Source: a virus
Lineage: Duplodnaviria > Heunggongvirae > Uroviricota > Caudoviricetes
Length of the DNA: 15,763 nt
Reading direction: 5' to 3' (one strand)
IMG/VR virus record: IMGVR_UViG_2660238209_000003
Location: 1-15,763 of that record
Positions 3,001 through 6,000 of this stretch are shown here, piece after piece. Numbering within the stretch: the first letter of the stretch is position 1; every line of letters begins with the position of its first letter. Position numbers: made by a program.

Positions 3001-6000
3001 CGCACTTTCAGTTTCCGGGACTGAAGGATTTTGTAAAGGATGCGACTGCTCATAACAGGAAGACTTTCAGCCATTTCGTCAACAGAAACTACTTCTCTTC
3101 ATTGGGCGAATATACAGATGGTCGGGTCAGTGGATATGAAGGCAAGGATAATAATCCACAGGGCATTAATATCAGGTATCGCTACGAGATAACGGATGAT
3201 TTTGGCGTTATCACCTCTTTTACATGGACGCGTTCTCTCACTAACTCACAGACATTTATTGATGTGCAGCCAGCCGAACATACCAGGAAGATTAAGAATC
3301 CGGCAGCTTCTGCCAGAACGGATATCAGAGCGAATTACTGGAGTCTGTTAGCGGGGCCTTCATGGCGGGTTAATCAGTACATGAGTTTATATGCGATGGC
3401 AGGGATGGGCGTAGCTAAAGTTACCGCTGACCTGAAAATTAAGGATAATGTTAACAGTACTGGCGGATTTTCTGAAAGCAACAGCACGAAAAAAACTTCC
3501 CTGGCGTGGGCTGCAGGTGCACAGTTTAACCTGAATGAGAGTGTTACACTGGATGTGGCTTACGAAGGTTCCGGCTCTGGTGACTGGCGTACGAGTGGAG
3601 TTACTGCTGGCATTGGCCTGAAATTCTGACCTGTATCCGGTAACCGTTTACTACCCGCTGTGATGGCGGGTTTTTTATTGCCCGTACAGGGCAAAAACCG
3701 TAAATTATGCGCGGGTGCCTTTCGGCTGATGGCTGGAGGGAGAACCTGAAGGCCTGATGTGGAAAGGCCCCGAGTCAACTTTAATGTTAACCCGAGGCCC
3801 TAACACTTCGTACCTTAAGCAAGTAGAAGGTTAGCGCCTCTCTGTAAAAGGAGTCAAGCGCTATGCCGCAAAAAACGATCATAGTCAGCATTTTATGCAT
3901 AACTATTTTGGTGATTGTCTGGATGATACACAACTCACACTGTGAGTTCAGGCTTAACATCATGTGGTCACAATTTGCGGCGTTCTTGCAGTGTAAACAG
4001 TAAGAAACCTCGACGGGGACGAAAGTCCCCGTCAACTGGTTGCTGAGGTTCAGCCGATATGGCACCCGTTTCTGGTGAGAGAATGGACGACAAAATTCTC
4101 CGGTATATGCAGCGTGTTGTGAGAAATTCCCGCAACCCTGAATTTATGAATGAAGTTAAAGACGCCTGCCTTAAAAAGCAGGCGTTTTGCTTTGAGGCAC
4201 CGGATGGTTTTCTGGTGCTGCGTTCTGTGCTCAGTGACGACGGTATCCCTTATGTTCTGGTGTTGCTGGGTGTGTGTACGGGGAGTGCCGGTGTTGAGCG
4301 TTATCTGCCGGAGGTGAAGACATTAACCAGTCTGGCTGGCGGACGCTGGGCTGAATTCCACACGGCAAGGCGGGGATTTATCCGGCTGGGAAAACGTCTG
4401 GGCTTTGAGCGAATGCCGGATGATGAGGATGGCTTCATGGTGTTCAGGATAGCGGTCTGACTGCCACTGTATTCATCATCGTGTGTAAACCAACATTGCA
4501 CTTCACATTCTGACCCTGCCCCGGCAGGGTTTTTTGTTATCTGAGGAGCCATAATGGGCGGAAAAAAAGGCGGTGGTGATACCAAAGTAAAACCAACAGC
4601 AGCGCAAATAGCACAGGAAGAGGTGGCCTGGAAAGGGTGGCAGGATTACAAAAATATTCTCCGTCCGGCAGAAGATAACTTCATGGAAAAGGTCGATGAC
4701 CTTAACAGTGAGCAGCAGTACGACAATATCGCCGGTACAACAAATCTGGGATATCAGAAACAGTTTGGTGAAACGCGAAGGGAGCTTGCGGGTAATCTTG
4801 CTCAGTCCGGCGTTGACCCATCCAGTGGTCGTTTTAATGCGGTAATGGATGCAAATCAAAGCGACCAGGTGACCGGGCAGATTGACACGACCACACGGGG
4901 GCAGGTATCGCAGGCAGATAAATATATTGCCGGGCTACAGGATGTTGCGGCTCTCGGTTCCGGTCAGAAGGCCGATGCGTTACAGAGTTTTAACTCTCTG
5001 GCAGACAGCAGTCTGGCAAAAGCCAAATCAGATGCACAGGCGGCGTTTACAAAACAACAGGGGCGGGCCTCTCTTGTTGGCGCTGGTCTGGGGGCGGTTG
5101 GGGCTTATGCAATGCATAAGGCTGGCGGTAGCGGAAGTGGAGGTTCTAAAACGCCAGACACCGGCGCTAACGCTATTCAGAGTCAGGCTCAGAACTGGAG
5201 ACTGTAATTATGGAGTATGGCAAATACGAAACTCTCGCAAGGGCTGGTTATTCAGGAGCAGACCGCCCACAGGGTGACTGGCAGACGTCAGCAGCGCTGA
5301 CACGCCAACAATACGACGACTGGCGAACCAGATATTTGCCCCGCGTGGCAAGGCTGGCTGACCTTGGTGAGAACAACAGCCTGATGAATGCACAGCTTGC
5401 CCGGGTGGGCGGCCTTGCCACTTCCAGTCTCCGTACAGCGCAGATGGCACAGGATAACCAGATGGCGAGATACGGGGTAAATCGTCCGGATAATCCCAAC
5501 AGTAACACACTGGGTTTGCGTAATGCTCTGGCAATTGCTGGCGCGAAAAATGGTATCCGTGAAGCAGAGCAGGATCGCCAGATGAACATACTGACGGGGG
5601 CTTCTGCACCTGCAAGACAACAACTGAGTGTTGGCGGTCAAATGATGACAGCGTAAGGGGGAAGATATGGGGTACGGCTTACTGGATATTGCGAATCAGT
5701 CACGGCGTGAGGCATTACAGGGAATAAGTGACGCAGACCGACGACGTGAAGAAATTGAGGCTGCGAACAAACAGATGGCGGCGCAACAGAAAGCGCAGAA
5801 CAAGCAGAATATCGGTACGGGCATTGGTACGGGGGCGGCTATTGGCGCATCCGTTGGTGGTCCTGTTGGCGCTGTTGCTGGTGCAGTAATTGGCGGCATT
5901 GCTGGTTCTTTGTTTTAAGGAGTGGTGAATGAGCGGATTTGCACAGGGGTTACTTGCCGGATTCAGCACTGTTGACCAGGCAATGACCCGTCGTAAGGAG

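Follow-up and report, generated by a model that had tools for sequence, protein, structure and literature searches.

A probable Hok/Sok-type toxin-antitoxin cassette downstream of lom in a Shiga toxin prophage

We analyzed a 15,763-nucleotide stretch of DNA from a virus of the class Caudoviricetes (IMG/VR record IMGVR_UViG_2660238209_000003, positions 1 to 15,763; hereafter the window). Positions 3678-4067 very probably form a structurally complete Hok/Sok-type type I toxin-antitoxin cassette that works by an RNA switch resembling that of R1 hok/sok. A preliminary description, made from the sequence alone, had proposed that a prophage here carries a type I toxin module of the Hok family; matches in Pfam and PHROG, probable homology of the leader and RNA folding support the proposal, with toxicity itself predicted from sequence. 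Homology and sequence analysis identified the parts of the cassette: the toxin peptide, the leader, the pairing of the tac element with a fold-back inhibition (fbi) element, an alternative tac/ucb pairing, a hairpin over the Shine-Dalgarno (SD) sequence of hok, a hairpin in the 3' untranslated region (UTR) and an antisense gene. The steps by which these parts would act are taken from the precedents of R1 hok/sok and of hokW-sokW in Sakai prophage 5 (Sp5).

Results

The 46-residue peptide is HokA-like

The open reading frame (ORF) at 3863-4003 on the plus strand starts with ATG and encodes a peptide of 46 residues, MPQKTIIVSILCITILVIVWMIHNSHCEFRLNIMWSQFAAFLQCKQ, which we assign to a HokA-like short subfamily of Hok toxins from Pfam, PHROG, RefSeq, alignment and substitution rates. 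All of the features listed in the preliminary description are present: a hydrophobic core (residues 5-22), the motif C27-E28-F29-R30, the stretch F38-A-A-F-L42 and an upstream SD sequence, AAAGGAG, at 3847-3853, 9 nt ahead of the ATG. The peptide matches Pfam HOK_GEF (PF01848) over residues 9-44 (profile positions 7-42 of 42) with a score of 24.9 bits (E 1.6e-5) where the gathering cut-off is 22, and PHROG 251, "MokW-like host killing", at E 6e-20; a RefSeq entry for it already exists (WP_001135718.1, "Hok/Gef family protein"). The best NCBIfam match is the HokA equivalog NF007290, at 37.9 bits and under the curated cut-off of 89, while the Hok subfamily model NF007279 gives 28.7 bits, under its cut-off of 73. 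From these scores and the alignment we classify the peptide as HokA-like and not as a HokA ortholog. A word-seeded peptide search returned only 17 close Escherichia coli clusters and added nothing on distant relatives.

Alignment of six 46-residue alleles with K-12 HokA, R1 Hok and HokW revealed invariant columns at M1, C12, T14, C27, E28, A39 and F41. The peptide has a single N-terminal transmembrane segment, with the Cys and Thr inside it and the C-E-x-R ... A-x-F residues in the periplasmic tail, in the register seen in characterized members; the Cys-to-AAF spacing is 12 residues, the same as in R1 Hok. The preliminary description had named a failure of positional conservation of the C-E-x-R and AAF residues as evidence against a Hok assignment, and the alignment places both in register with HokA, R1 Hok and HokW. 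Every intact allele has exactly 46 codons, and the ratio of nonsynonymous to synonymous substitution rates (dN/dS) is 0.20-0.46 against the window allele, with a median of 0.30 over 80 allele pairs and dS often above 1. These values indicate that 3863-4003 is a coding gene under purifying selection. Toxicity and inner-membrane localization have been demonstrated for the relatives HokW (PMC8621323) and R1 Hok (PMC9841398).

A conserved promoter and leader precede the toxin gene

We retrieved 16 homologous loci, and the structure alignments described below comprise 17 sequences. Sequence and conservation place a hok promoter on the plus strand at 3678-3706, with a -35 TTGCCC at 3678-3683, a 17-nt spacer and a -10 TAAATT at 3701-3706. 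In 13 of the 14 other cassettes with upstream sequence, which come from four genomic contexts, the -35 box reads TTGCC[CG], TTGCGG or TTGATG; the same 13 have a -10-like TAxAxT (TAAATT, TAGATT, TACATT, TACAGT or TAGAAT) at a constant distance to an invariant GGGTGCC. This promoter had been placed correctly from the start: its -10 ends 6 nt upstream of G3713, where both the Rfam leader match and the invariant 5' element begin, and homology among the cassettes begins at its -35. The hok promoter and the Sok promoter described below each fit 8 of 12 consensus positions. We also observed that the lom terminator (3653-3677) is followed directly by a perfect 6-bp inverted repeat, TTGCCC-GTACA-GGGCAA (3678-3694), whose left arm is the hok -35 hexamer; the repeat is confined to the Shiga toxin (Stx) phage context and absent from the others.

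The predicted 5' end of hok mRNA coincides with a tac element at 3713-3730 on the plus strand, GGGUGCCUUUCGGCUGAU, as judged from the Rfam start, near-invariance and the fold; these first 18 nt are nearly invariant in 17 homologs. Rfam family RF01794 matches the hok strand over its full length (model positions 1-157) at 3713-3874, with 37.5 bits (E 1.2e-6) against a gathering score of 59. Same-subfamily relatives score 43-50 bits, the R1 locus 87 and hokW 113. Searched at gathering thresholds, Rfam gave no match anywhere in the window. Although RF01794 is named "sok", it lies on the hok sense strand and begins at the 5' element of the hok leader both in an R1-type locus and in hokW, so that what it models is the hok leader. 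In the R1-type locus it begins at the 5' element GGCGCUUGAGG, which we take to be the +1 of R1 hok mRNA.

The mRNA is predicted to fold end to end and to refold when shortened

The RNA from 3713 to 4075 has a fold z-score of -7.7. In its minimum-free-energy fold, tac (3713-3730) pairs with 4050-4067, the site of a plus-strand fbi element, UCAGCCGAUAUGGCACCC, through two helices, 3713-3719/4061-4067 and 3722-3729/4050-4057. Over the 17 sequences these helices are paired in 98.3% and 80.6% of cells, and sliding the partner by 1-3 columns reduces pairing to 36-51%. In the 3713-3719/4061-4067 helix nearly all changes lead to G-U wobbles, with two unpaired cells in 117. We identify this pairing as the tac/fbi end-pairing of hok mRNAs, an assignment for which the alignment offers conservation of pairing and not covariation. 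The sequence onto which the 5' end folds back is located past the 3' hairpin, and the module consequently extends beyond the limits first given for it, 3678-4033.

When the RNA was folded in silico only to 4035, the segment 3713-3726 moved onto 3759-3771, a ucb-like box on the plus strand that would be the alternative partner of tac once the 3' end has been removed; it was recognized from the fold of the shortened RNA and from the alignment. This tac/ucb helix is 98.7% paired over the 17 sequences, contains one compensatory pair (C-G to U-A) and is also predicted by RNAalifold. The refolding opens the long leader hairpin, and the predicted accessibility of the target of the Sok tail rises from 0.30 to 0.47.

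The minimum-free-energy fold also sequesters the hok SD in a local hairpin at 3833-3862 (plus strand), formed by 3833-3837/3858-3862 and by CUCU 3840-3843 with GGAG 3850-3853; GCGCCTCTC and AGGAG are conserved in the homolog alignment. In the RNAalifold consensus the start-codon region pairs with 3975-3983, the codons for FAAFL, and such a pairing may be the reason that both stretches are invariant at the nucleotide level.

The best-supported structure of the cassette is a 9-bp plus-strand hairpin with a GAAA loop at 4012-4033, GACGGGGAC-GAAA-GTCCCCGTC, which lies between the stop codon and fbi. Its helix is paired in 100% of the 17 sequences, with compensatory double changes at 4 of 9 pairs. 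The preliminary description had noted the hairpin, with its lack of a U-tract, as fitting the structured 3' end of hok mRNAs; the structure is there as reported, and it proves to be internal to the 3' UTR, not the 3' end of the primary transcript. It is likely to be the barrier that halts 3'-to-5' trimming. R1 hok presumably has a hairpin, GGCGGGC-GCAG-GCCCGCC, at the equivalent position after its stop codon.

A predicted antisense Sok gene overlaps the leader

On the minus strand, conservation and analogy with sokW point to a Sok promoter at 3828-3857, with a -35 TTGACT at 3857-3852, an 18-nt spacer and a -10 TAACCT at 3833-3828. The sequence AGGTTAGCGCC is invariant in 17 homologs, and the -10 TAACCT occurs in all 17; the same AGGTTAGC lies 7 nt from the annotated 5' end of sokW in Stx2 phage 933W, where TAACCT is the -10 hexamer at an equal distance to the start. 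The Rfam alignment puts the window promoter at what we take to be the position of the R1 Sok promoter. An antisense Sok-like RNA had been expected in the preliminary description without a position, and a gene for it can now be predicted. The minus-strand TTGACT noted there exists and supplies the -35, one base away from the 3851-3856 given for it, while the -10 that was dismissed as poor is the invariant TAACCT shared with sokW. In the Sp5 study, mutation of the sokW promoter by substitutions around the -10 abolished antitoxin activity (PMC8621323).

The predicted Sok-like RNA is about 70 nt long (3751-3821, minus strand) and consists of a tail of some 20 single-stranded nucleotides at the 5' end (3821-3802), then a 16-bp hairpin (3801-3764) and a terminal UUUCC; the annotated sokW of 933W, 71 nt long, served as the analog for its start (about 3821) and length, and its 3' end is approximate. 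The antisense hairpin has a fold z-score of -6.8, and when sequences were folded one by one the tail-plus-hairpin design appeared in 14 of 14 distinct alleles. The upper stem is replaced between alleles (GUUAAC/GUUGAC, UUAAAC/GUUUGA, UAAAC/GUUUU) and the tail varies more than any other part, as would be expected if the tail sets target specificity. RNAalifold detected no compensatory pairs in the Sok alignment, which is spoiled by indels in the upper stem and loop.

The 46-residue subfamily has no conserved mok

The preliminary description also anticipated a mok-like frame overlapping hok. The window allele has no canonical overlapping mok: the frame is shut by TAG at 3832-3834, and no start codon lies between there and the hok AUG. 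The only candidates, AUG 3757 and AUG 3784, both end at this UAG, 31 nt before the hok AUG and 12 nt upstream of the hok SD. The first of them opens a 25-codon plus-strand leader ORF (3757-3834) that corresponds to the mok-type frame of some relatives and is not conserved. In other alleles the conserved AUG 3757 opens ORFs of 1-78 codons in all three frames, the 933W allele having only 8 codons; with all frames checked, most alleles contain an ORF that reaches the hok SD, from inconsistent start codons, and two alleles contain none. By these comparisons the 46-residue subfamily is without a conserved mok.

We considered and ruled out a restriction of mok to the -1 frame of hok, as the R1-type variant and the annotations of 933W and K-12 have mok in frame with hok; the analysis of all frames led to the same conclusion of no conserved mok. 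In the R1-type IncFII plasmid variant, mok reads in frame into hok, and the leader is 1 nt shorter than the R1 leader as we assume it to be. In the annotations of K-12 hokA/mokA and of 933W mokW, mok and hok end at a common stop codon. The frame relation of mok to hok therefore varies across the family. After the GAGG of the Sok-target hairpin the window reads CCCUAAC, which contains no mok AUG, where R1 presumably reads CCCUAUG; the sequence of the variant supports this reading of R1.

Saturation mutagenesis of R1 found that mok translation is needed up to the hok SD and not beyond (PMC9841398). Measured against that result, the leader ORF of the window would nearly satisfy the requirement and that of 933W would not; the 25-codon ORF is a possible mok surrogate.

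The cassette is a mobile unit with an exchangeable toxin core

Regardless of the flanks, similarity to the window runs from the -35 hexamer to GGCACCC (4061-4067), which gives the module a span of about 390 nt (approximately 3678-4067). A distant BLAST search with 3700-4075 showed that 1750 of 5426 complete E. coli genomes contain homologs, which are 73-86% identical. The loci occupy four contexts: after lom in Stx podophages, in the gap between gpJ and the tail-fibre gene of lambdoid prophages (L014, L015), after ogr at the end of P2-like prophages (L012, L016-L020) and in a ykgM-linked island (L010). Outside the Stx phages the cassette, again about 390 nt long, is accompanied by a terminator of its own and sits in moron positions of P2-like and lambdoid prophages and in a chromosomal island; L013 is a further locus of this group. 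In lambdoid prophages it takes the place that lom has in lambda. Two decayed copies were seen, one in O121 with a 1-nt insertion in the coding sequence (CDS) that shifts the frame (L009), and one, unannotated, in DG343-1, in which the -10 is lost, the start ATG has become ATA and an internal stop is present (L011).

Between the window and 933W (L003) the leader differs at 3 of 153 columns and the 3' UTR at 3 of 71, compared with 46 of 142 in the CDS (about 98% identity in the UTRs and 68% in the CDS). The closest CDS among the sampled alleles is that of the ykgM-island locus. The toxin core has evidently been swapped by recombination inside a near-identical cassette, and the distribution of differences suggests breakpoints at the borders of the CDS. 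A scan of GTDB species representatives gave five loci, two of them from Salmonella enterica. The other three, on a 4.2-kb contig of a Planococcaceae metagenome-assembled genome (L022), a 226-kb Vagococcus contig (L023) and an 857-bp Xanthomonas pisi contig (L025), were not used; they may be enterobacterial contamination, most plausibly the two on short contigs.

The cassette lies among late genes of a tv86-type Stx prophage

Sequence comparison identifies the window as an Stx prophage of the Traversvirus tv86 type: over 431 bases around the hok cassette it is 100% identical to Stx2-converting phage 86, to other Traversvirus tv86 phages and to prophages in chromosomes of E. coli O111 and related strains. 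The order on the plus strand is a tail-fibre gene, two small membrane-protein genes, lom (2895-3629, plus strand; Pfam Ail_Lom), the hok cassette and further phage genes, which are conserved, have no assigned function (PHROGs 610, 611, 596, 594 and 601) and are followed by a 2796-residue ORF. The cassette has the same orientation as the flanking late and structural genes (tail fibre, lom, PHROG 610/611) and is an accessory gene, or "moron", between lom and the next late gene. Farther along in the podophage structural region, the RefSeq homolog of the 2796-residue ORF (7225-15615) is labelled "LPD38 domain-containing protein", and an 83-residue protein (5667-5918) carries the RefSeq label "bacteriocin".

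In the P2-like, lambdoid and ykgM contexts a Rho-independent terminator lies 30-50 nt past fbi in every case, whereas in Stx phages the next phage gene replaces the sequence after GGCACCC. The annotated start of this gene (ATG 4059; 133 residues, 4059-4460) falls within the conserved fbi sequence of the cassette, CGATATGGCACCC, which also occurs where the downstream gene is absent. The PHROG 610 profile (positions 1-124 of 124) spans only residues 9-133 of the product, and the true start is therefore probably ATG 4083, with GGTGAGAGA ahead of it. The first terminator-like site past the cassette is a good hairpin at 4162-4192, ACGCCTGC-loop-GCAGGCGT followed by TTTTGCTTT, within the PHROG 610 gene and conserved in 933W. 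This site could stop transcripts from the hok promoter in the lysogen, which would then be about 480 nt long.

Discussion

The cassette compared with known hok loci

The cassette resembles R1 hok/sok (parB), the paradigm of type I toxin-antitoxin systems. The invariant transmembrane Cys and Thr, the C-E-x-R and the A-x-F of the toxin are in register, the leaders appear homologous and are both matched by RF01794, the window leader below the gathering score, and the tac/fbi end-pairing and tac/ucb refold correspond to the R1 mechanism (PMC9841398). The Sok promoter is embedded just upstream of the hok SD, Sok is a 5' tail plus a hairpin, and a GC-rich hairpin right after the stop codon is followed by fbi. 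The differences are that the peptide is 30% identical to R1 Hok and has 46 residues and not 52, that the mok frame closes 31 nt before the hok AUG, that no terminator follows fbi and that the locus resides in the late region of a phage and not on a plasmid.

A relative carried by the same phage type is hokW-sokW, an experimentally established type I toxin-antitoxin system in which HokW is toxic, sokW neutralizes it and the system is activated on prophage induction (PMC8621323). In Sp5 treated with mitomycin C, sokW vanishes and HokW appears; when hokW-sokW is deleted, growth arrest comes about 40 min later and phage release falls to half (PMC8621323). In 933W (AF125520), hokW lies at 58,460-58,734 on the minus strand (L021), and the ortholog of the window cassette, unannotated in that record, is on the plus strand at about 45.4-45.9 kb, about 13 kb from hokW-sokW. 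The original 933W record annotates only hokW, mokW and sokW, and several other Stx phage records likewise lack an annotation for the cassette next to lom. We considered whether the window cassette was hokW-sokW itself and rejected this on its other position and strand in 933W and on the 24% identity of the peptides. The two loci belong to the same family and share the Sok -10 TAACCT at an equal distance to the start. HokW differs in having 51 residues, a RelF/Gef-like sequence and an annotated 70-residue mokW, and its leader scores 113 bits on RF01794 against 37.5 in the window. Because the Sok tails are unrelated, we would not expect the two Sok RNAs to neutralize each other's toxins.

The nearest named Hok is K-12 HokA, with 43% identity and with MPQK, TWMI/VWMI, S-x-C-E and AAFL-x-CK in common, although the window peptide is four residues shorter at its C-terminus. 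Like the window cassette, hokA-mokA-sokA is a chromosomal or prophage-borne copy of uncertain activity. It differs in that K-12 hokA is disrupted by IS150, which separates it from sokA, with mokA annotated as a pseudogene, and in that it occupies a fixed chromosomal site, unlike the cassette, which is mobile among prophages.

A model for the RNA switch

On the pattern of R1 and Sp5, the weak hok promoter would yield a stable, closed and untranslatable mRNA. Slow trimming of its 3' end to the 4012-4033 hairpin would remove fbi, and the 5' end of the mRNA would then refold onto 3759-3771 and expose the leader. As long as it is made, the unstable Sok RNA would pair through its 5' tail with 3802-3821 and then along the rest of 3751-3821, blocking translation and leading to cleavage by RNase III. 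Were Sok synthesis to stop, Hok would be made and the inner membrane depolarized; candidate triggers are loss of the prophage, shut-off of the host by another phage and convergent late transcription after induction. Coupling of translation, if there is any, might speculatively run through the 25-codon leader ORF, where a ribosome that terminates at the UAG (3832-3834) would extend as far as the anti-SD arm (3838-3843).

Weighing the interpretations

Several results weigh against a complete and working cassette. The NCBIfam Hok scores and the leader score on RF01794 all fall below their thresholds. A generic sigma-70 consensus scan of 3550-4300 returned no sites and flagged neither promoter, so that the promoter calls rest on conservation and position. 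The tac/fbi helices show wobble changes and no double compensatory changes over the 17 sequences. No canonical mok is present, the leader ORFs differ among alleles in start, frame and length, and in R1 premature mok stops upstream of hok suppress or abolish toxicity (PMC9841398). There is no Rho-independent terminator between 4067 and the next gene in the window, which leaves the 3' end, and hence the trimming step, undefined in this cassette. Finally, our literature searches returned nothing on transcripts, toxicity or antitoxin activity of the lom-adjacent cassette or the 46-residue subfamily.

Several of these points would also be accounted for if the locus were hok/sok by descent and now an evolutionary relic, its toxin no longer made and its mok-type coupling and own terminator lost, in parallel with the inactivated hok loci of E. 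coli K-12. The closed mok frame, the 8-codon leader ORF of 933W and the toxicity-abolishing mok stops of R1 all speak for such decay, as do the missing post-fbi terminator, the decayed copies in O121 and DG343-1 and the fate of hokA and mokA in K-12. We nonetheless consider a relic improbable. The ORF is intact and, among alleles saturated at synonymous sites, still has 46 codons and a dN/dS near 0.3; the cassette retains tac, fbi, both promoters and the hairpins of the SD and of Sok, with UTRs about 98% identical between tv86 and 933W; and no more than 12 nt separate the UAG of the window from the hok SD, near the up-to-SD requirement of R1 (PMC9841398). The idea that the ORF is a chance frame with coincidental motifs draws on the abundance of short ORFs, 29 of at least 20 residues overlapping the 1.8 kb around it, and we regard it as already refuted: the Pfam score is above the gathering cut-off, the PHROG 251 match has E 6e-20, the residues invariant in the family line up, the alleles keep the same frame and length at a dN/dS near 0.3, and the RNA architecture is specific to hok loci.

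A separate question is what a functional cassette would be selected for. It might, like hokW-sokW, serve as a lysis aid in the phage's own lytic cycle and not in prophage stabilization or abortive infection: sense transcription from the late promoter through the cassette would provide hok RNA and disturb transcription from the convergent Sok promoter. The cassette shares the orientation of the late and structural genes and has no terminator of its own, and the induction behavior and deletion effects of Sp5 hokW-sokW point the same way (PMC8621323). That precedent, however, is a different hok locus, on the opposite strand in 933W; the P2-like and ykgM cassettes lie at the prophage end or outside the late operon with their own terminator, and activation by read-through is therefore not a general mode; and phages of the 933W type already have hokW, in addition to the S holin and R endolysin of Sp5. 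A role as a lysis aid thus seems to us conceivable and rather doubtful.

On balance we favor a complete Hok/Sok-type cassette, an uncharacterized member of a well-known family whose peptide has already been named by annotation pipelines and whose only unusual feature is the absent mok. Tentatively, the 46-residue HokA-like cassettes might constitute a mok-less branch of hok, under Sok control without the canonical coupling, in which the toxin core is exchanged by recombination while the UTRs stay constant. Such a branch might work through cleavage alone, through a standby-type mechanism or through short, variable leader ORFs for which it would be enough to end close to the anti-SD helix. Exchange of the toxin core could reflect selection for toxin diversity among co-resident prophages.

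Implications

The family, the architecture and the occurrence in prophages are all textbook matters and will not surprise a specialist. In Stx phages of the 933W/tv86 type there are two hok cassettes, unrelated to each other, of which only hokW-sokW has been studied, and the 46-residue subfamily is present in about a third of complete E. coli genomes, in accessory-gene positions. If active, the cassette would be another phage-borne membrane toxin that could affect the timing of lysis and therefore the release of Shiga toxin; it could also affect prophage retention or the exclusion of other phages. Because it lacks a conserved mok, the subfamily offers a natural way to probe the reach of the R1 regulatory model across the family.

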